Shown: piece by piece, positions 2,910 through 10,442 of the stretch | Numbering within the stretch: the first letter of the stretch is position 1 | Layout: each line of letters opens with the position of its first letter | NCBI GenBank assembly: GCA_944387785.1 | Contig: CALXGG010000001.1 | Span: 9,541-73,540 of the forward strand | Length of the DNA stretch: 64,000 bases | DNA from: an uncultured Oscillospiraceae bacterium | GTDB taxonomy: Bacteria > Bacillota > Clostridia > Oscillospirales > Oscillospiraceae | Direction: 5' to 3' | Translations under genes and position numbers: made by a program | Notes under the pieces: generated by a model | Seen by the model: only the letters and a program-made list of their open reading frames with translations | What the model was told of the DNA's origin: nothing | Databases searched by the model: none

Positions 2910-4166
2910 TTATGATGAGGTGGCGGTCTCCGCTGTCTCGTCCAGGCTGCGCACCTCCACCTCCAGCACGCGGCGGCCGTCGGTCCGGGTCACGGTGACC
3001 TTCAGGTCCTCCCACAGGAAGGTGTCGCCCTGGGCCGGGATCCGGCCCAGCTGCTCGGCCACCCAGCCGCCCAGGGTACTGTTGTCATCCCCGGCGTCGG
3101 CGTGGAACAGGTCCTTGAGGATCTCCGGGCTCTCCGCGCAGGAGATGCGGTAGGCCCCCTCGCCGGTCTGACGGACAGGCTCCTCCACCTCGTCGTGCTC
3201 GTCCCAGATCTCGCCCACCAGCTCCTCCAGGATGTCCTCCATGGTGACGATGCCCAGGGTGCCGCCGAACTCGTCGCTGACCACGGCCACATGGGACTTG
3301 CTGCGCTGGAGCTGCCGGAGCAGGGCGCTGATCTTCACCGTGGGGGGCACGAAGAGGGGCGCGGTCATGATGTCCGCCAGCCGGGCATCCTCATCCGCCT
3401 CGCAGAAATCCTTCAGGTGCAGCACGCCCTGGATGTCGTCCAGGTCCTCGCCGTAGACCAGCAGCCGGGAGTACCGGGACTCCCGGAACACCCGGGCCAC
3501 CTCCTCCCGGGCCGCCTCCATCTGCACCGCCTCCAGGTCCACCCGGTGGGTGAGGACGTCCCCCGCCTCCTGGTCCGGGAACTCGATGGCACTGCGCAGC
3601 AGCTCGCCCTCGTCCCGGTCGATGCCGCCCTCCTGCTCCACCTCGTCCACCAGCACCAGCAGCTCCTGCTGGGTCAGCTTCCGGTCGTCCTTTACCCGGA
3701 AGATCAGCGTCAACAGCCGCTTCCACTGGGTAAAAATGAAATTCAGCGGCGCCAGTATCCACATCAGCACCCGCAGCAGCGGGGCCGAGAGCATGGCAAA
3801 GCGCTCGGGGCTGTCCTTGGCCAGGCTCTTGGGGGAGATCTCGCCGAAGATCAGCACCACGATGGTGATGACCACGGTGGAGATGGTGGCCCCCAGGTCG
3901 CCGTAGTAGCGCACGAACATCACCGTGCCGATGGACGCCACGGCGATATTGACGATGTTGTTGCCGATGAGCAGCGTGGACAGCAGCCGGTTATACTGCT
4001 CCGACAGGGCCAGGGCCCGCTCCGCCCGCTTGTCCCCCTGCTCCGCCATGGCCTTCATCCTGGCCCGGTTCAAGGATGAGAACGCCGTTTCCGATGCAGA
4101 GAAATAGGCGGAAAAGGCGATGCATATGACCATCGCCAGTAATTCACCCACTAATTGCGTTTCCAT
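2910..4166 (-). CDS. CNNM/CorC/TlyC-type transporter (DUF21 membrane domain + CBS pair + CorC_HlyC domain)
   Basis: 418 aa. N-terminal TM region with SAYFSASETAF, central CBS-like region and a C-terminal transporter-associated domain. The family is often mis-annotated as hemolysin. Confidence 0.85.
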   Translation of the reverse strand: METQLVGELLAMVICIAFSAYFSASETAFSSLNRARMKAMAEQGDKRAERALALSEQYNRLLSTLLIGNNIVNIAVASIGTVMFVRYYGDLGATISTVVITIVVLIFGEISPKSLAKDSPERFAMLSAPLLRVLMWILAPLNFIFTQWKRLLTLIFRVKDDRKLTQQELLVLVDEVEQEGGIDRDEGELLRSAIEFPDQEAGDVLTHRVDLEAVQMEAAREEVARVFRESRYSRLLVYGEDLDDIQGVLHLKDFCEADEDARLADIMTAPLFVPPTVKISALLRQLQRSKSHVAVVSDEFGGTLGIVTMEDILEELVGEIWDEHDEVEEPVRQTGEGAYRISCAESPEILKDLFHADAGDDNSTLGGWVAEQLGRIPAQGDTFLWEDLKVTVTRTDGRRVLEVEVRSLDETAETATSS

Positions 4167-4413: not shown

Positions 4414-4443
4414 AGTATACAGAATACCCGGCGGCCCGTCAAT
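4414..4443 (-). promoter_or_regulatory. sigma-A-type promoter for the CNNM leader
   Basis: Minus strand TTGACG (4443-4438), 17-nt spacer, TATACT (4419-4414). Confidence 0.45.
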
Positions 4444-4490
4444 AGCCCGCCGCACACATTAACGGCATCTTAACGCGCCGCCCGCCGCCG

Positions 4491-4994
4491 TCAATAGGAG
4501 CTGATGGCCAGGGAGGGGTCGTCCTCCCCCTTCTCAATGGCCCGGATCACCACAAAATACTTCAGGTCATCCCTGACGGCCACCTGGACCCGGTCCCCCA
4601 CCTGATGGCCCAGCAGGGCCTTCCCCACCGGGGACTCCTTGCTGATGAGCCCCTTCAGGGCGTCCTGCCGCAGGGTGGTGACGATCTGGATGGTCATTTC
4701 CTTGCTGAGCATCTCGTTGAACAGGGTCACCTTGTCAAAAAGCCCCACCTCCGTCTGGCCGGAGGCGGCGGAGATCACCTTGGCGGTGCGGACCATCCGC
4801 TCCAGGTACCGGATGCGGCTCTCGTTGCGGTTCTTCTCCTGCTTGGCGCACTTATACTCAAAGTTCTCGCTGAGATCCCCGAAGGCCCGGGCGGTCTGGA
4901 CCTCCTCGATCAGCTTGGGCCGCAGCACCCGTACCCGGTAGTCGATCTCCTCCCGCATCTTGCGGATATCCACCTCTGTCAGCTCATCGTACAT
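4491..4994 (-). CDS. greA: transcription elongation factor GreA
   Basis: From M32 of ORF 4491..5087 (167 aa). LTEVDIRKMREEI...ARAFGDLSENFEYKCAKQEK is the GreA coiled-coil signature. The longer upstream start runs into AT-rich promoter DNA. Confidence 0.85.
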   Translation of the reverse strand: MYDELTEVDIRKMREEIDYRVRVLRPKLIEEVQTARAFGDLSENFEYKCAKQEKNRNESRIRYLERMVRTAKVISAASGQTEVGLFDKVTLFNEMLSKEMTIQIVTTLRQDALKGLISKESPVGKALLGHQVGDRVQVAVRDDLKYFVVIRAIEKGEDDPSLAISSY

Positions 4995-5099
4995 GTCCCC
5001 ATGCCCCTTTCCCCGTCCCGCTCCTGCCGAAGGAGGATGGTCCTCCCTACCGGGGGGGACGGAATTTATGAATAATTTGTTAAACACGCATAAAGCCTG

Positions 5100-5128
5100 T
5101 TGACATTTCCCTTGATCTGTTGTATATT
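5100..5128 (+). promoter_or_regulatory. near-consensus sigma-A promoter with no downstream plus-strand gene
   Basis: TTGACA 5100-5105, 17-nt spacer, TATATT 5123-5128. The next plus-strand CDS is at 7174, beyond the minus-strand sleC. Confidence 0.6.
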
Positions 5129-5134
5129 TTAATC

Positions 5135-5806
5135 ACAGGAAGACAAGGTCAAAAAGAAGTGAAGCCCCAGCAGTAAGGACCCAGCAACTTTCTGGCGCGG
5201 ATTCCCAGGGTAACCGGAAATCATCAGATATCCCCCATGATCCAGCAGATATCACCGCGGCGGGTCATACAGGATATCCGGTCAGGACCGGAACGGACCC
5301 GCGGATTCCGCAGCGACCTCGCGAGGAAGCAGCAAAGACTCAGCATAGACCCAGCAAAGACGAGACCCTGGCAAGTTCCTGGCAATGTCCCTGTAAGTCT
5401 ACCCAAGGAGGTACGGTCCAATGTACAACGCAGCCTGATCCGCAAGGATGCTTAGTTGTTCAGCGGATCAAACAAATCAGTTTCCCAAGCAAGCGGAACC
5501 CTTTTCGCACACGAAAGCAGCATGGATGACCGTATCCAAAGAAGAGTTCGTCTCTCGAAATGCACTGTCTTAGCGTATGGCAAAAGCGACGATCCGCGCA
5601 AGGGAACCCACGAAAGGTGGACAAAGCATTTGACAACCGAATACGTGCAGTAGCCCCACAGTCGCAAGAGTGATTGTGGGGCTGCTGCTATGTTGCCCCT
5701 ATCCAGTGTACCACCGTCCCCCGACCCTCTTCAAGAGGCAACCTTCCCAAATCGCGGCCCGTCCCGGCCGGAGGCTCCCTCCGCCGGGGCGGGCCGCTTC
5801 ATTTTC
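5135..5806 (+). ncRNA. candidate stand-alone structured ncRNA of unassigned family; 3-prime end at either the 5648-5687 or the 5754-5797 hairpin
   Basis: The gap is ORF-poor and visibly less GC-rich than its flanks. It has multiple GNRA-capped hairpins, repeated short motifs, a consensus promoter upstream, and a terminator-like hairpin followed by TTCATTTT at the end. Confidence 0.4.
5754..5806. terminator. GC-rich hairpin terminator; T-tract on plus strand, and also downstream of the sleC stop on minus
   Basis: GCGGCCCGTCCCGGCCGGAGG / CCTCCGCCGGGGCGGGCCGC inverted repeat (5754-5797), then TTCATTTT. Confidence 0.6.
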
Positions 5807-5853
5807 CGGCGGCAGGGGCGCTCCCGCCCCGCCGCCGCGGGCATGGCACGGCG

Positions 5854-7089
5854 CTACGCCGCAAGCTTGGCCACCGCCACATAGATGTTGGAGATGCTGT
5901 ACCAGGTGGCGAAATCCACCTCCCCGGTCTGGGGCAGGTGGAAGATGCCCTGGAAAGCCCGCACCGCCTCCTCCGTGGCCTGGCCGTAGACCCCGTCCGC
6001 CCGGACCGCCGGCAGCGCCGGGAAGTTCTCCCGGATCCGGTTGAGCTGGAGCTGGATGGTCCGCACGTCCTCCCCGGCGGAGCCGATGGACAGCACCGTC
6101 CCGCCGAAGGACATGGGCACCCCCTCCACCTTCTCCGCCGGAGCCAGGTAGATGTCGGAGCCGTAGTACCGCCGCAGGATGCTGACAGCGTCCCAGCCCT
6201 GCTCCCCCAGGGCCTGGGAGCCCCACTGGGAGAGGCCGCTGCACTGGGTCTGTCGGCCGTCGCAGTACTGGGTCAGCAGGGGCTGCCCCGCCCCCTCCCG
6301 GGTGATATAGGTGTTGAAGAGATCGTCCACCACTACGGAGATCTCCTCAAAGATCGTCCTGCCGGGGACGAAGGACTGGTCGTAGGCGGTGGAATTGGTG
6401 ATGGTGAACTCGTAGCCCTTGCCCCGGTACCACTCGGTATACACCCGGTTGAGGGTAAAAGAGATGATGGCCAGGACATTGGCCTTGATGGTCTCCCGGG
6501 CCCAGGTGGCGTAGATCTCGCTGCAGGCCACATTCTTGATGTAGTCCCGGAAGGGCACCCACTCGTCGGGGGCCCCGGCGTCGTCCGGCTTGCCCAGGTG
6601 GACGATGATGTACTCCGGGATCACCGGCTGAGGCAGGACCACCAGCCCGCCCGGGTCCGGCAGAGGCTTTACCTCCGGCTCCGGGATCTTGGGCGGGAAA
6701 TCCCCCCACAGGGTGTGGGGCGCGATGGAGAGGTTGCGGACGTTGAAGCCGCCGGACCGGGCGGGGCTCAGAGCCGCCGGCTGTACCGCCAGGCCGTCCG
6801 GCAGCAGCTGCACCCCGCCGATATGGATCGTCTCGAACCCCTCCGCGAACACCGTCACCGAGTAGGTGGCGTAGGGCCTCACGTCCCCCTCGCTGAGGGA
6901 ATCGGCGGCCGGCGGCGCCGGCAGCGTCACCGCCTCCGTCTGGCCCGAGGCGTCGGTGGTCAGCTCCAGGCGCATCCCCCTGTCGGCGGGGTCGCTGATC
7001 CGCACCCGCGCCCCGCTGATGGGCACCACCCGGCTCTCCGTCGTCACCATGACCTGTAATCGCCCCTGTCCCGTGTAAGCTGGATTCAT
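5854..7089 (-). CDS. sleC: spore cortex-lytic enzyme SleC-like (pre-pro region, catalytic region, C-terminal peptidoglycan-binding domain)
   Basis: 411 aa. Blocks PEYIIVHLG, YIKNVACSEIYATW, ISFTLNRVYTEWYR, ITNSTAYDQ, QYCDG and the C-terminal DGVYGQATEEAVRAFQ...LPQTG match my memory of clostridial SleC. It sits next to Csp proteases. Confidence 0.8.
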   Translation of the reverse strand: MNPAYTGQGRLQVMVTTESRVVPISGARVRISDPADRGMRLELTTDASGQTEAVTLPAPPAADSLSEGDVRPYATYSVTVFAEGFETIHIGGVQLLPDGLAVQPAALSPARSGGFNVRNLSIAPHTLWGDFPPKIPEPEVKPLPDPGGLVVLPQPVIPEYIIVHLGKPDDAGAPDEWVPFRDYIKNVACSEIYATWARETIKANVLAIISFTLNRVYTEWYRGKGYEFTITNSTAYDQSFVPGRTIFEEISVVVDDLFNTYITREGAGQPLLTQYCDGRQTQCSGLSQWGSQALGEQGWDAVSILRRYYGSDIYLAPAEKVEGVPMSFGGTVLSIGSAGEDVRTIQLQLNRIRENFPALPAVRADGVYGQATEEAVRAFQGIFHLPQTGEVDFATWYSISNIYVAVAKLAA

Positions 7090-7173
7090 AAGGGCAGCCC
7101 TCCTTTCCGTATACTAGTCTATGCGGCGGAGGGCCCGTCGCTCCCGCCGACTGATCCAAAGGGGAGCTGGTTT

Positions 7174-8742
7174 ATGGAGTACATCGTCAAATACAACGGG
7201 GACATCCGGTCCCTGGGATACCCCACGGAGCTGCTGGGCCACCAGTACGCCATTCTGGAGCTCACCGACGGGGAGGCCGCCGCCCTGCCCCGGTCCCCCC
7301 TGGTGGAGTACCTGGAGCCGTCGGAGGGCCTCTCCCCCTTCCTGCGCTCGGGCCTGGACAGCGCCTGCATCACCCCCGTCCTCCGGGACGACGTGCTGGG
7401 CCTTACCGGCCAGGGGATCATTATCGGGTTCATCGACTCCGGCATCGACCTTACCCACCCGGAGTTCCGCACCGAGAGCGGCGCCACCCGGGTCCTCCGG
7501 CTGTGGGACATGACCCTGGCCGGCGACCCGCCGCCGGGGTTCCGCAAGGGCGCCGTCTTTACCGCCGAAGAGATCGACGCCGGGACCGTCCCCAGCCGGG
7601 ACACCGCCGGCCACGGCACCGCCGCCGCCGGCATCGCCGCCGGCCGCAGCGGCATCGCCCCCGGGGCCGCCATCGTATCCGTGAAAATGGGCAGCGGCAG
7701 CGCCACCTCCACCGACGTCATGCGGGGCGTGAAATTCATCTACGACTGCGCCGCCGAGGCCGCCATGCCCTGCGTCGTCAACCTCAGCTACGGCACCAAC
7801 AAGGGCTCCCATCAGGGGCAGTCCCTCTTCGAGACCTATATGGACGCCATGGCCCAGCAGGGGAAAAGCCTCATCGTCTGCGCCGCCGGGAACGAGGGGG
7901 ACAGCGGCCACCACTTCCAGGGCCTCCTGCCGGAGGGCGGCGTGCTGAACGTGGAGTTTGCCGTGTCCACCCGGCGGGAGGAGATCTATCTCACCCTTTG
8001 GAAGAGCTTTGCCGACAGCGCCCGGTTCGAGATGGTCCTTCCCTCCGGCGCCTCCACCGGCCCCCTCTCCCCCGGCGCCCCCCGGCGGTTCGTCTTTGGC
8101 GGCGTGGGCGCGGCCATCGCCTTCAACGGCCCCACCCACTTCTCCACCGCCCAGGAGGTCTACTTCGCCCTGGCCGCCCCGGCCGGCGGCCTCAACGGCC
8201 TGTGGACCCTCCGCTGCTACGGGGACCGGGTGGTGGAGGGCCGCTTCGATATCTGGCTGCCCACCGTGGAGGAGGTGGGGCGGGACACCGCCTTCCTGCT
8301 GCCGGACCCGGAGCTCACCATCACCCTGCCCGCCACCGCCCGGCTGCCGGTGGCCGTAGGGGGGTACCGCTCCGGCACCGGCACCGCCAGCCCCTTTTCC
8401 GGCCGGGGTGCCGCCCCCTGCCTGGGGTACGCCCAGCTGGACATCTGCGCCCCGGCGGAGCAGGTCTACACCGCCAAGGCCGGCGGCGGCTACGACACCT
8501 ACACCGGCACCAGCATGGCCGCCCCCTTCGTCTCCGGCTGCGGGGCCCTGCTGATGGAGTGGGGCATCGTCCGGGGCTACGACCCCTTCCTCTTCGGCCA
8601 GAGGATCAAGGCCTTCCTCTGCGCCGACGCCGCCCGGAGCCCATTCCTCTCCTACCCGGACCCCGTGTGGGGCTACGGGAAGCTCAATCTCTGCCAAACG
8701 CTGGCGGACCTGGTCCGCCAGTGGGAAAGGGGGACGCTGTGA
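7174..8742 (+). CDS. Csp-family subtilisin-like germination protease (S8), catalytic triad intact
   Basis: 522 aa. Asp in GFIDSGID, His in DTAGHGTAAAG, Ser in YTGTSMAAPF. RBS AAAGGGGAG. Divergent from sleC. Confidence 0.8.
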   Translation: MEYIVKYNGDIRSLGYPTELLGHQYAILELTDGEAAALPRSPLVEYLEPSEGLSPFLRSGLDSACITPVLRDDVLGLTGQGIIIGFIDSGIDLTHPEFRTESGATRVLRLWDMTLAGDPPPGFRKGAVFTAEEIDAGTVPSRDTAGHGTAAAGIAAGRSGIAPGAAIVSVKMGSGSATSTDVMRGVKFIYDCAAEAAMPCVVNLSYGTNKGSHQGQSLFETYMDAMAQQGKSLIVCAAGNEGDSGHHFQGLLPEGGVLNVEFAVSTRREEIYLTLWKSFADSARFEMVLPSGASTGPLSPGAPRRFVFGGVGAAIAFNGPTHFSTAQEVYFALAAPAGGLNGLWTLRCYGDRVVEGRFDIWLPTVEEVGRDTAFLLPDPELTITLPATARLPVAVGGYRSGTGTASPFSGRGAAPCLGYAQLDICAPAEQVYTAKAGGGYDTYTGTSMAAPFVSGCGALLMEWGIVRGYDPFLFGQRIKAFLCADAARSPFLSYPDPVWGYGKLNLCQTLADLVRQWERGTL

Positions 8743-10442
8743 AGCTGCCGGAAGAGATGCGGGCATTCATCGACGCGCCGGACACCGTGGATTTCGTCAC
8801 CCGGGCCACCGACGCCTTCTTCGACTTCGTCCGGGACAGCGGCGAGGTGATCGTGGGGCAGATCCTCTCGGGAAGGTATGTCCTGGGGTACATCAAGGAG
8901 GAGAATTTCCCCCACCTGGAAGCCGCCCTGGGGGCCGGCTTCGTCAGCTCCGCCTCGGTGGTGCTGGGGCCTCTGGACCGCCCCGCCCTGGAGGCCGCCG
9001 GCATCATCCAGGTGCAGAACCAGCCCTACCTCAGCCTGAAGGGCCGGGGGGTACTGCTGGGCTTCGTGGACACGGGGATCGACTACACCTTACCCGTCTT
9101 TCGCTACGCGGATGGTACCAGTAAAGTAAAATTCCTATACGACCAGACGGCGGAGGGCACGCCGCCCAGGGGATTCACCTCCGGTGTGGAATACACCGGC
9201 GAGGACATCGACCGGGCCCTGGCCGCCCAGGATCCCTACGCCGTGGTGCCCCAGAAGGACGACAGCGGCCACGGCACCTTCCTAGCCTCGGTGGCCGCCG
9301 GCCTGCCGGTGGAGGATTTCATCGGCGCCGCCCCCGACGCGGAGATCATCGCGGTAAAGCTGCGGAAGGCCCGGCCCTTCTACCGGAAAAAATACTGCGT
9401 GCCCCCCTGGCAGGGGGAGGCCTACGAGTCCAGCGCGGTGATGGTGGGGGTGGAGTACATCCTCAAGAAGGCCCAGGCCCTGGGCCGGCCGGTGGTGATC
9501 TGCCTGGGCATGGGCACCAACTTCGGCAGCCACGACGGCTTCAGCGTTTTTGAGGAGTATCTGGAGGGGGTGTCCATCCGCAAGGGCGTGTGCCTGTGCG
9601 CCGCCGCCGGCAATGAGAGCCAGGCCCGCCACCACTGCCAGGGCACCCTTCTGGCCGGGGAGAGCTCCGCCGTGGACATCAAAGTGGGCGAGCAGGCCGG
9701 AGACATATACCTCGCCCTCTGGAACACCATCTCCGACCGCTTCTCCGCCTCCGTCCGCTCCCCCTCCGGGGAGCTGGTGGGCAGGATCCCCGCCCGGAGC
9801 GGCAATATGACGGAGGTGAAGCTGATCCTGGAGCGGACGAAGGTACAGGTGGAGTACCACTTCCCGGTGGAGGGCAGCGGCGGCCAGCTGACCATCGTCC
9901 GCATCCTGGACGCCACGCCGGGGATCTGGACCGTGACCCTCTACGGAGACATCGTCCTCAACGGCGGCTACCACGCCTGGCTGCCCATGACCGGCTTCGT
10001 CTCCCCCACGGTGGAGTTCCTCTACGCCTCCCCGGACTACACCATCACCGTCCCCGCCACCACCGCCGGGCCCATCTGCTGCGGCGCCTACAACAGCGCC
10101 AACCAGAGCATCTACTCCCGCTCCTCCCGGGGGCCCTCCCGGCTGGGGCAGGTCCTGCCGGACCTGGTGGCCCCGGGGGTATCGGTGGGCGGGTTCTACC
10201 CCTATGGCTACGGCACCATGTCCGGCACCAGCGCCGCGGCGGCCGTGCTGGCGGGGGCCTGCGCCCTGCTGCTCCAGTGGGGGATCATCGAGGAGAACGA
10301 CCCTGCCATGAGCACCTACCAGATCCGGGCCTACCTGATCCGGGGCTGCCTGCGGAGCCCCGCCATGACCTACCCCAACGTCCAGTGGGGCTACGGGGCC
10401 GTCCAGCTCATGCAGACCTTCCATCTGATGCGGGAGCTGTGA
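8739..10442 (+). CDS. second Csp-family subtilisin-like protease (S8), catalytic triad intact
   Basis: GTG 8739 overlaps the upstream stop (GTGA) and has a GGGAAAGGGGGA RBS. Asp in GFVDTGID, His in DDSGHGTFLAS, Ser in MSGTSAAAA. The upstream part of ORF 7503..10442 is out-of-frame shadow. Confidence 0.8.
   Translation: MKLPEEMRAFIDAPDTVDFVTRATDAFFDFVRDSGEVIVGQILSGRYVLGYIKEENFPHLEAALGAGFVSSASVVLGPLDRPALEAAGIIQVQNQPYLSLKGRGVLLGFVDTGIDYTLPVFRYADGTSKVKFLYDQTAEGTPPRGFTSGVEYTGEDIDRALAAQDPYAVVPQKDDSGHGTFLASVAAGLPVEDFIGAAPDAEIIAVKLRKARPFYRKKYCVPPWQGEAYESSAVMVGVEYILKKAQALGRPVVICLGMGTNFGSHDGFSVFEEYLEGVSIRKGVCLCAAAGNESQARHHCQGTLLAGESSAVDIKVGEQAGDIYLALWNTISDRFSASVRSPSGELVGRIPARSGNMTEVKLILERTKVQVEYHFPVEGSGGQLTIVRILDATPGIWTVTLYGDIVLNGGYHAWLPMTGFVSPTVEFLYASPDYTITVPATTAGPICCGAYNSANQSIYSRSSRGPSRLGQVLPDLVAPGVSVGGFYPYGYGTMSGTSAAAAVLAGACALLLQWGIIEENDPAMSTYQIRAYLIRGCLRSPAMTYPNVQWGYGAVQLMQTFHLMREL

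Follow-up and report, generated by a model that had tools for sequence, protein, structure and literature searches.

A predicted structured RNA gene divergent from greA in gut Oscillospiraceae, with an invariant Shine-Dalgarno and mini-ORF module

The window analysed here, a stretch of 64,000 nucleotides from an uncultured Oscillospiraceae bacterium, contains a gap of 859 bp between the start of greA (4491-4994, minus strand; Pfam domains GreA_GreB_N and GreA_GreB) and the stop codon of sleC at 5854, also on the minus strand. In agreement with an earlier sequence-only reading, which had seen no credible coding sequence in this region, the gap holds solely overlapping ORFs of up to 73 aa, none of which scores above the Pfam threshold, and on near-identical contigs it was left empty by gene callers. 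It is also GC-poor compared to its flanks, as that reading had remarked, with a G+C fraction of 0.56 in the leader and 0.51 in the core described below, versus 0.62 in greA, 0.68 in sleC and 0.66 in the whole window. An ORF of at least 25 aa common to the relatives was not found, the frames being broken by frameshifting indels between close relatives and even between strains. The test for a small-protein gene gave neither a reading frame conserved across relatives nor a Pfam family over the cutoff, and no conserved ORF within the RNA is longer than 7 codons. A 65-aa ORF at 5456-5653, with a match to HTH_30 below the cutoff (E = 0.034), was rejected; it is broken in the same-species sequence L001 and missing in the other clades. 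Extension of translation beyond the TGA at 5436, by selenocysteine insertion or read-through, to include the in-frame ORF 5448-5573 was likewise rejected, because close relatives carry +1/-1 indels just downstream.

A sigma-A-type promoter on the plus strand, TTGACA-17 nt-TATATT at 5100-5128, fires away from greA into the gap, with a predicted start near 5135. Its earlier description as an orphan promoter among the best of the window holds, as its score of 11/12 ties for the top of 7 such sites in 64 kb. The pattern TTGAC[AT]-17-TATATT occurs in 25 of the 27 members of the family described below, the exceptions being L206 (TATGGT) and L139 (upstream sequence missing), and none of the 72 greA loci that lack the RNA has it. 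Immediately upstream of the -35 box, an A/T-rich block (5066-5099, plus strand, with AATTTGTTAAACACGCATAAAGCCTG) is conserved within clade A, and all clades are A/T-rich here with GCA[CT]AAAA. This block resembles an UP element serving the RNA promoter, and on the opposite strand the divergent promoter of greA probably overlaps with it.

The promoter is followed by a variable 5' leader (5135-5404, plus strand), which comprises ~10 nt in clades B and C, 84-92 nt in the clade A relatives and ~271 nt in the window. An insertion specific to the window's species (5157-5347, plus strand) is absent from L006-L009, and no second copy of it was found anywhere searched; it contains an 11-nt tandem array (5330-5361; TRF: period 11, 2.9 copies). 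All short motifs listed by the sequence-only reading were found at their coordinates. Its impression of repetition applies to the leader, where 19 repeated 7-mers were counted versus 2.9 expected, a number reached by 0 of 500 shuffles, but not to the conserved core, where 5 were counted versus 2.6 expected (85 of 500 shuffles). Unusual folding was not detected in the leader (z = -1.0 against shuffles). On this comparison, the leader is a lineage-specific expansion. For genome scans it holds a lesson: the species-specific leader contained most of the eye-catching motifs and none of the conserved signal.

The conserved unit consists of the promoter and a core of ~290-300 nt (5405-5695). With the covariance models R1 and R2 the window scored 354 and 319 bits, and at least 26 other loci scored 110-355 bits. 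In total the core was found in at least 27 loci, representing 21 distinct sequences in three clades, all Oscillospiraceae among the matches listed. A metagenome pattern scan by the 5' motif matched at least 120 stretches, of which 80 loci entered the analysis, so that the count of members is a lower bound; the weak matches L141 and L096 proved to be ordinary gene starts that fit the search pattern by chance. The RNA is dispensable, being missing from 72 of 80 related greA loci (no match with model R2) and cleanly deleted in L210/L211. Viral contigs, phage records and plasmid records gave 0 matches to the core, and an origin from a mobile element or phage was rejected on these searches and on the lack of a second copy of the leader insert. 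The narrow, patchy distribution and the dispensability limit the general importance of the RNA.

The core is predicted to fold considerably better than shuffled sequences (z = -5.0, versus -1.0 for the leader), and both the consensus and the MFE fold are multi-branched, with P2, and with H7 around 4-5 hairpins. P2 pairs GATCCGC at 5437-5443 with GCGGATC at 5463-5469 (plus strand); 95% of its cells are paired, compensatory changes occur in 3 of 7 pairs, and the held-out sequences keep 27 of 28 pairs. Of the two alternative pairings proposed earlier for 5437-5469, this one has comparative support, while the ATCC-GCAA-GGAT mini-stem has none. A central domain (5482-5606, plus strand) is closed by H7 (TTCCC at 5482-5486 with GGGAA at 5602-5606), for which the held-out sequences keep 16 of 16 pairs with 4 compensatory cells, and encloses H8-H12. 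Within this domain, H8 lies at 5502-5517, H9 at 5523-5528 and 5533-5538 (TGGATG/TATCCA, with GGAT/ATCC changed to GGGT/ACCC in L207 and L208), H10 at 5543-5555 and H12 at 5586-5597, the last with double changes in all 3 of its pairs. The domain is followed by the box GAAAGGTGGA (5612-5621, plus strand), unchanged as GAAAGGYGG[A/G] in all 21 sequences. The CCAC-GAAAG-GTGG hairpin previously described at this position is found in the window's clade only, and the invariant element is the box GAAAGGYGG. Most of the motifs offered as evidence by the sequence-only reading, namely the short repeats and two of the three mini-stems capped by GNRA-type loops, are not conserved.

The closing helix P1 pairs 5409-5421 (GGTACGGT..CAA, plus strand) with 5630-5646 in the model. 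Its 3' strand includes TTGACAA (5630-5636), a motif shared without change by all 21 sequences. Two positions of the helix show double changes from G-C to A-U; its outer pairs are weak, and the 5' strand may alternatively form a local hairpin, GGUAC/GUAC. Over all 21 sequences, 91% of cells are paired versus 33-45% with the partners slid, 29 pairs show double changes versus 7-11, and the covariation score is 0.264 versus 0.05-0.10, in alignments that were fitted to the model and cover a diversity of only three clades. Four divergent sequences not used in deriving the fold keep 221 of 261 predicted pairs (85%, versus 34-43% slid). In these sequences P2, H7, H9, H12 and the terminator show compensatory changes; outer P1, H3 and H11 are poorly supported. 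Hence conservation and covariation, which the sequence-only reading had named beforehand as tests that could refute it, both came out positive.

The strand signals are concordant for the plus strand, namely the direction of the promoter, the U-run after the terminator and the excess of G.U over A.C cells (142 versus 41). That the region is instead an upstream regulatory region or 5' UTR of greA on the minus strand, or a functionless decaying gene remnant, appears highly improbable. It does lie directly upstream of greA, and the predicted fold of the minus strand, too, is more stable than that of shuffles (z = -3.2), but promoter and U-run point the opposite way in all members, as does the G.U excess, and the stretch that separates greA from the RNA promoter holds the likely promoters of greA. 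An entire gene stands between the RNA and greA in L056 and L206-L209, where the RNA is nevertheless intact and has a promoter of its own, and the compensatory changes speak against neutral decay.

The core ends with an intrinsic terminator (5647-5695, plus strand), a 19-bp stem formed by 5647-5665 and 5670-5688 (dG -38.8 kcal/mol, z = -7.7) with a U-run. Compensatory changes occur in 10 of its 19 pairs and 97% of its cells are paired. In the window's species the U-run is degraded (TATGTTG), while relatives have good ones, e.g. TTTTCTTTT and TATTTTTTTGTTTTT. The predicted conserved 3' end of the RNA is this 5647-5688 hairpin with its U-run. The sequence-only reading had placed the end of the transcript further downstream, at a GC-rich hairpin (5754-5797) that is followed by TTCATTTT (up to 5805). 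This hairpin is real and very stable, on both strands, but it is not the terminator of the family and is not conserved outside the sleC-bearing clade, analogous hairpins being found only in sleC-bearing relatives. With the RNA gene and sleC converging on it from either side, it probably serves as terminator of sleC or as a shared, bidirectional back-up terminator, and it is no part of the conserved RNA.

The gene past the terminator is convergent in all clades and may be sleC, azlCD-like, pilM-like or spoIIAA-AB-sigF; hence, the RNA is no leader to any gene. This bears on a cis-acting attenuator or riboswitch-like element, in which a ligand or factor would gate the 5647-5688 terminator and read-through would enter the convergent gene in antisense. 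The 5' arm of the terminator directly follows the 3' strand of P1, an arrangement known from riboswitch expression platforms, the alternative 5' hairpin competes with P1, and the U-tract of the window is weak and followed by a second terminator. However, the convergent gene differs per clade, which leaves no common target, the U-tracts are strong in the relatives, the second hairpin stops read-through before sleC in the window, and neither riboswitch nor T-box models of Rfam match. We therefore regard such an element as decidedly improbable.

A comparison of 4900-5950 with the 4227 families of Rfam 15 by cmscan at E <= 10 gave no real match, only six chance-level ones to unrelated families (best E = 0.35), in line with the earlier statement that the RNA could not be placed in any known family. 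At the Rfam gathering score nothing was found on the RNA in the whole window, and at E <= 10 nothing overlapped it in 7 homolog loci. The single match at gathering score in the window, a cobalamin riboswitch, lies elsewhere. Models of RNase P do not match the RNA, and L068 has a genuine class A gene for RNase P RNA at another position (5705-6049, 276 bits). ARAGORN reported 0 tmRNA or tRNA-like genes in 4900-5950, for which Rfam gave no match either. The T-box and riboswitch covariance models also gave no match, and a co-oriented downstream gene is lacking in all clades. A T-box-like reading of the 'GGUGGA' box was rejected, since its 4-bp antiterminator GYGG/CCRC co-changes only once (clade B) and no downstream gene is present. 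Equally rejected was a CsrB/RsmZ-type RNA or CsrA sponge: the core has 7 GGA versus 4.7 expected (p = 0.18), the invariant GGAs sit in stems, and H9 of L207 and L208 has lost its GGA, with a compensatory change in the pairing partner.

The sequence-only reading had proposed a single RNA of 550-670 nt (5135-5806) in the size class of ROOL, GOLLD and OLE. The RNA resembles these in being orphan, GC-poor relative to its flanks, ORF-less, structured and from Firmicutes. For this species a primary transcript of ~560 nt (5135-5695) is quite plausible, and leakage at the weak U-tract could extend it to ~670 nt. However, the conserved structured unit has about half the proposed size, ~290 nt compared to units of ~580-800 nt in ROOL, GOLLD and OLE, the 5' ~270 nt are species-specific, missing or short in relatives, and fold like shuffles, and the RNA is confined to a few Oscillospiraceae lineages. 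The covariance models of ROOL (RF03087), GOLLD (RF01998) and OLE (RF01071) gave no significant match, nor did any other. A large RNA of this class is hence hardly credible.

To our knowledge, almost nothing is known about RNA regulators in the Oscillibacter, Dysosmobacter and Pelethomonas relatives. A whole-word literature search found no greA-linked RNA in Clostridia. The ~195 alignments and the part of the table covered from a gut survey with 3161 candidates (PMC8040213) contain neither the motifs nor a greA-linked Oscillospiraceae entry, and an earlier listing in the remainder of that survey is possible. Taken together, 5100-5695 on the plus strand is a predicted free-standing gene for a structured, non-protein-coding RNA, and the RNA is a putative new family in a subset of gut Oscillospiraceae. 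The earlier proposal of a conserved, structured, non-coding plus-strand transcript outside every Rfam family is thereby supported, the transcript itself being a prediction. With a promoter, a covarying fold of ~290 nt and a terminator, the family is well delimited and its model testable. It shares its own strong promoter, a Rho-independent terminator, a conserved multi-helix fold of ~300 nt and the lack of a co-oriented gene after it with free-standing sRNAs such as 6S, Ms1 and SR1 and RNAIII, the latter two being dual-function sRNAs. Its narrow, patchy distribution, its fixed position at greA and an invariant Shine-Dalgarno (SD) sequence with a start codon and a 3-5 codon ORF set it apart from them.

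This ribosome-binding-like module (5405-5438, plus strand) opens the core. The ORFs of the gap had been described as lacking Shine-Dalgarno sites, but a perfect one, AAGGAGG at 5405-5411, is present with a 9-nt spacer before the ATG at 5421, although only a 5-codon ORF follows. This ORF1 (5421-5438, plus strand) reads ATG TAC AAC GCA GCC TGA (MYNAA), with the stop at 5436-5438. The arrangement [A/G]GGAGG-N9-ATG with an early in-frame stop is found in 21 of 21 unique members, L206 having TTG as the start; the SD is AAGGAGG or AGGAGG, and GGGAGG in two, and the peptide has 3 aa (MYK/MCK/MYR) or 5 aa (MYNxx). An SD with an ORF of 3-5 codons on an otherwise non-coding RNA is unusual. The conservation of 'UG' in the AUG and of the three bases after it could, however, be due to the GGUAC/GUAC hairpin or P1 and not to a role as codon. 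At the other end of the fold, the box GAAAGGYGG resembles a second SD and lies 7-9 nt ahead of a TTG (5630 in the window), from which ORF2 runs for 7 codons in all 21 sequences to a stop inside the terminator stem (TAG 5651-5653). In this stretch (5612-5653) coding and pairing cannot be separated as causes of the conservation.

The best reading, to which we give about an even chance, is a free-standing RNA that acts in trans and carries a ribosome-docking cap at its 5' end. The invariant SD, start and stop would dock a 30S subunit or 70S ribosome, which would block 5'-to-3' decay by RNase J1 and in this way set the 5' end of the functional body and shield it. This body, predicted to consist of P2, H7 around H8-H12 and P1 as closing helix, followed by the intrinsic terminator, may then act as a stable and abundant RNA, most likely with a protein or the ribosome as partner. 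The freely variable length of the leader suggests that it could be trimmed back to the SD. If the ribosome docks at the SD, any insert between promoter and SD (10, ~88 or ~271 nt) would be tolerated, while the spacing between SD and start would be fixed.

A precedent for such a cap is the STAB-SD of B. thuringiensis cry3A, in which an SD serves as 5' stabiliser by blocking RNase J1, and processing shortens a long primary leader from -558 to the SD at -129 (PMC4113751). The strong SD of B. subtilis hbs is likewise reported to be a 5' stabiliser that blocks RNase J1 (PMC5737220). As in these cases, the SD of the greA-linked RNA is strong, perfectly complementary to the 3' end of 16S rRNA and near the predicted 5' end, ~10 nt from the predicted transcription start in clades B and C, and trimming of its variable leader would parallel cry3A. 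The known examples stand in mRNAs ahead of real genes, while the body here is non-coding. Furthermore, a STAB-SD involves no translation and neither has nor needs a start codon (PMC4113751), while here a start codon follows at ideal spacing with an ORF of 3-5 codons. That start and early stop are invariant nonetheless hints that translation itself may matter. The 5' module could hence be a clean natural case of an SD as protective 5' cap for an sRNA, or alternatively a mini-ORF that controls the folding of the RNA.

The latter points to an alternative in which translation of the micro-ORFs is the purpose, with a translation-sensing or dual-function RNA or active tiny peptides. Ribosomes on ORF1 would open H3 and the base of P2 and expose the second SD-like box; the UUG of ORF2 would then initiate, and 7 codons of translation into the terminator stem would remodel the RNA or affect termination. 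The invariance of SD spacing, start and early stop is consistent with this, including the change from ATG to TTG, which is still a start, as are a synonymous AAG/AAA variation, codons 3-5 that differ between clades A and B only by synonymous third-position changes, the spacing and constant frame of ORF2, and H3, which joins the end of ORF1 to the second box. On the other hand, the varying length and sequence of ORF1 show that the peptide is not conserved, the bases of ORF2 also belong to P1 (3' strand) and to the terminator stem (5' arm), so that this pairing alone suffices to explain its conservation and constant length, the changes in H3 are one-sided only, and no co-oriented downstream gene is present as an output for attenuation. 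On balance we consider this alternative unlikely, though worth keeping in view. An RNA of a new, ribosome-engaging regulatory kind is improbable: two nested translation-like modules would bracket the fold, and ribosome loading would switch it between the local 5' hairpin and the long-range P1/H3 pairing. Such an RNA would report the translation status to the transcription machinery, and for this reason the linkage to greA would be kept by selection.

Wherever a locus extends far enough, greA is present next to the RNA, and as a divergent gene it is the sole constant neighbour, a linkage that the sequence-only reading had not noticed. Base-pairing of the RNA to the greA 5' region was rejected, as duplex energies were no better than those of shuffles (z -1.1 to +1.9). 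A small RNA physically tied to the greA promoter region is also known from E. coli, where the GraL RNAs arise from the greA promoter, run in the same direction as greA and end at a leader terminator, whereas the RNA described here is transcribed divergently from a promoter of its own, without overlap with the greA transcript. The position beside greA would fit a regulatory RNA that binds RNA polymerase, a functional analogue of 6S or Ms1, as both would act on RNA polymerase. The back-to-back arrangement with greA while all other neighbours change, the strong housekeeping-type promoter and the length of ~300 nt, similar to that of Ms1, are consistent with such a role. However, 6S and related Rfam models gave no match at E <= 10 in the window or the 7 homolog loci, the predicted fold is a multi-branched domain rather than an extended rod whose large central bubble imitates an open promoter, and the linkage may reflect a mere lack of breakpoints within ~100 bp, which makes this role quite improbable. 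The strict linkage to greA is nevertheless the one concrete functional lead, towards a function in transcription.

The 859-bp gap separating greA (4491-4994, minus strand, with both GreA/GreB Pfam domains) from sleC (5854-7089, minus strand, PG_binding_1) contains only short, mutually overlapping ORFs of at most 73 aa, none of which has a family match in a Pfam search. Gene callers also left the gap without a gene in near-identical metagenome contigs, in agreement with the sequence-only reading, which had seen no credible coding sequence here. Likewise, the G+C content is lower in the gap than in its flanks (0.50-0.57 vs 0.62-0.72), and the proposed sigma-A promoter TTGACA-17-TATATT at 5100-5128, matching 11 of 12 positions, ranks joint first among the seven sites of this kind in the 64 kb, counting both strands. 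Each motif listed in that reading was found where it had been placed. A search of the gap region against Rfam 15, which that reading had suggested, gave no match even at E <= 10, so this is not a known Rfam family. Across the entire window, the sole Rfam family represented is the cobalamin riboswitch (RF00174, 27774-27993, minus strand, 79 bits, E = 8e-18), closely preceded on its own strand, at ~28030, by a sigma-A promoter match of 11/12 positions.

Within the Oscillospiraceae, a GreA protein scan of reference genomes placed the window with Oscillibacter and Dysosmobacter; it yielded 80 greA loci, just six of which match the gap by blastn. The comparison with relatives that had been called for shows conservation of the promoter and of a core from ~5405 to ~5695, whose first bases, AAGGAGGTACGGTCCAATGTACAAC, are invariant and whose 3' end is a hairpin (5647-5688) followed by a T-run. 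The conserved Shine-Dalgarno (SD) sequence follows the -10 box after 15-16 nt in two of the clades; this interval is 90-98 nt in the window's clade and reaches 277 nt in the window itself. Within this leader (5135-5404), positions 5157-5347 have no counterpart in L006-L009, the nearest other species, and among the fetched loci are carried solely by contigs from the same species as the window. This species-specific insertion of ~190 nt has imperfect direct repeats of 17 nt at its two boundaries (5171 and 5341), includes a tandem array of an 11-nt unit (CAGCAAAGACC x 2.9, 5330-5361), and has no second copy in the window or any fetched locus. Repeated 7-mers are enriched in the leader (19 vs 2.9 expected) and not in the core (5 vs 2.6), and in fold stability the core (z = -5.0), unlike the leader (z = -1.0), stands apart from shuffled sequence. 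Hence, the repeated short motifs, previously taken as a mark of the RNA, reflect recent local expansion and not functional RNA.

A covariance model of the core (R1) scored 354 bits on the window and detected nine members among the 80 genome greA loci, at least 11 further members among the 80 metagenome loci listed, which were fetched by the 5' motif, and four more in contigs fetched via GreA homologs of the most divergent clade. Including same-species contigs, the family comprises at least 27 loci and at least 21 distinct sequences in three clades: clade A, with the window, L006-L009 and their like; clade B, from mouse-gut MAGs such as L060 and L081; and clade C, the low-GC Candidatus Pelethomonas types L056, L068 and L206-L209. 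Another 72 greA loci gave no additional member with a broader model (R2), and searches of viral contigs, phage records and plasmid records found none. In two contigs (L210, 1144-1269, and L211) a deletion between two GATTGACA repeats, one at the end of a DUF4317 gene and one in the TTGACAA box of the RNA, has removed the RNA body and left only the terminator hairpin. The RNA is thus patchy and, as these deletions show, dispensable.

In every locus of sufficient length greA lies upstream of the RNA and divergent from it; in L056 and L206-L209 a DUF4317 gene sits between them and the RNA retains its own promoter. The gene beyond the terminator is always convergent and varies with the clade (sleC, azlCD-like, pilM-like or the spoIIAA-AB-sigF operon), which rules out a leader or riboswitch for the downstream gene. 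The consensus promoter is confined to loci with the RNA. Together with the U-run 3' of the terminator in relatives and the ratio of G.U to A.C in paired columns (142 vs 41 cells), it assigns the gene to the plus strand, as read from sequence. In the window, sleC, which also has a weak SpoIID match, is transcribed away from a tandem pair of S8 subtilases, of which the first has a weak CspB-prodomain match; this layout (5854-10442), also present in contigs L001-L004, is the csp-sleC spore-germination arrangement.

The fold predicted by RNAalifold from a plain MAFFT alignment of ten sequences comprises a closing helix P1 (5409-5421 with 5630-5646), H3 (5433-5436 with 5615-5618), the P2 hairpin (5437-5443 with 5463-5469), H7 (5482-5486 with 5602-5606), which closes a central domain enclosing H8-H12, and, at the 3' end, the terminator hairpin (5647-5688). 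Across 21 sequences, 91% of the cells are paired vs 33-45% with slid partners, 29 pairs vs 7-11 show double changes, and the covariation score is 0.264 vs 0.05-0.10. As this alignment was fitted to the model, four divergent sequences unused in deriving the fold were scored separately; they keep 221 of 261 pairs (85% vs 34-43% slid), with 41 compensatory cells overall (P2 27/28, H7 16/16, H9 21/24, terminator 72/76). Support is weak for the outer half of P1 (21/32), for H3, which is without double changes, and for H11 (3/8). P1 also has a competitor that accounts for the data just as well, a local GGUAC/GUAC hairpin that would bury the start codon. Of the stems noticed earlier, the long-range GATCCGC/GCGGATC pairing is supported, whereas ATCC-GCAA-GGAT and CCAC-GAAAG-GTGG occur in clade A only.

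Close relatives differ by +1/-1 indels throughout and share no ORF of 25 aa or more, even from strain to strain, which excludes read-through of the TGA at 5436. A translation-start-like module is nevertheless conserved in 21/21 sequences: [A/G]GGAGG, a 9-nt spacer and ATG (TTG in L206), with a stop after three codons (TAA; MYK, MCK, MYR) or five (TGA; MYNxx). Also invariant is a second box, GAAAGGYGG, 7-9 nt 5' of a TTG that likewise never varies and whose frame has exactly seven codons and stops inside the terminator stem. Since these bases also belong to P1 (3' strand) and to the terminator (5' arm), coding and pairing are inseparable there, and this second frame is probably incidental.

The gene thus has a strong promoter, a folded, conserved body of ~290 nt, a conserved terminator, coding capacity limited to micro-ORFs and a constant greA neighbour. 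We propose that a ribosome docks on the 5' SD/start module and would shield the body from 5'-to-3' decay. In the STAB-SD of cry3A, the -558 transcript is trimmed by RNase J1 to the SD-bound 30S at -129 (PMC4113751), and the strong SD of hbs is a second precedent for a 5' protector (PMC5737220). Such protection would account for the one conspicuous evolutionary pattern, in which the promoter-to-SD sequence grows freely, from 10 to 271 nt, while the SD-to-start spacing is invariant. It does not require a conserved start and stop, which gives appreciable weight to a less likely alternative, that translation of the mini-ORF itself remodels the RNA. The greA linkage gives only a lead towards an RNA-polymerase-related role; no complementarity of the RNA to the greA 5' region was found.

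The conserved terminator, at -38.8 kcal/mol, is highly stable, but its U-run, UUUUCUUUU or longer in relatives, is degraded to UAUGUUG in the window's species. The hairpin at 5754-5797 with UUCAUUUU, between the RNA gene and convergent sleC, folds on both strands; it is probably the sleC terminator or a bidirectional one and could catch read-through. From both features, a primary transcript of ~560 nt is predicted in this species, with a minor ~670-nt form possible. The 550-670 nt first suggested may hence hold for the transcript here, but the conserved functional unit is ~290 nt and, with no Rfam match, does not belong to the large-RNA class (ROOL, GOLLD, OLE-like) to which it had been compared.

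Rfam covariance models likewise set it apart from 6S RNA, the T-box and other riboswitches and RNase P, as did ARAGORN and Rfam for tmRNA; a 6S-like rod is absent from the consensus and computed folds, and GGA is not enriched as in CsrB-type (CsrA) sponges. By analogy, it appears to behave as the gene of an ordinary structured sRNA that stands on its own, with a 5' element resembling STAB-SD. No published description was found, including in the part of a large gut survey that was covered, and we file it as a new RNA family, narrowly distributed and dispensable. Conservation and covariation back the gene model, which is directly testable, and two unusual traits, the linkage to greA and the mini-ORF with its ribosome-binding site at the 5' end, merit experiment.

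Around greA, an apparent conserved extended -10 (TGnTATACT) lies ~35-45 nt upstream of the ATG in clades B and C (L060, L081, L068, L056, L206, L207), and in the window's clade another A/T-rich block (5066-5093) is conserved in its place. The Candidatus Pelethomonas locus L068 carries a bacterial RNase P class A RNA (5705-6049, minus strand, 276 bits) ~1.2 kb downstream of greA. Immediately 3' of greA in L056 (4555-4671, plus strand), the enterobacterial Hfq-binding sRNA STnc490 is matched at 55.1 bits, just short of the gathering score of 56; given nearby Thr_leader-like matches, this may be no more than a terminator-rich stretch. In the window, two promoter-like sites (10/12 and 9/12; 4414-4494, minus strand) just downstream of the greA stop point toward the gene for a 418-aa membrane protein (2910-4166).
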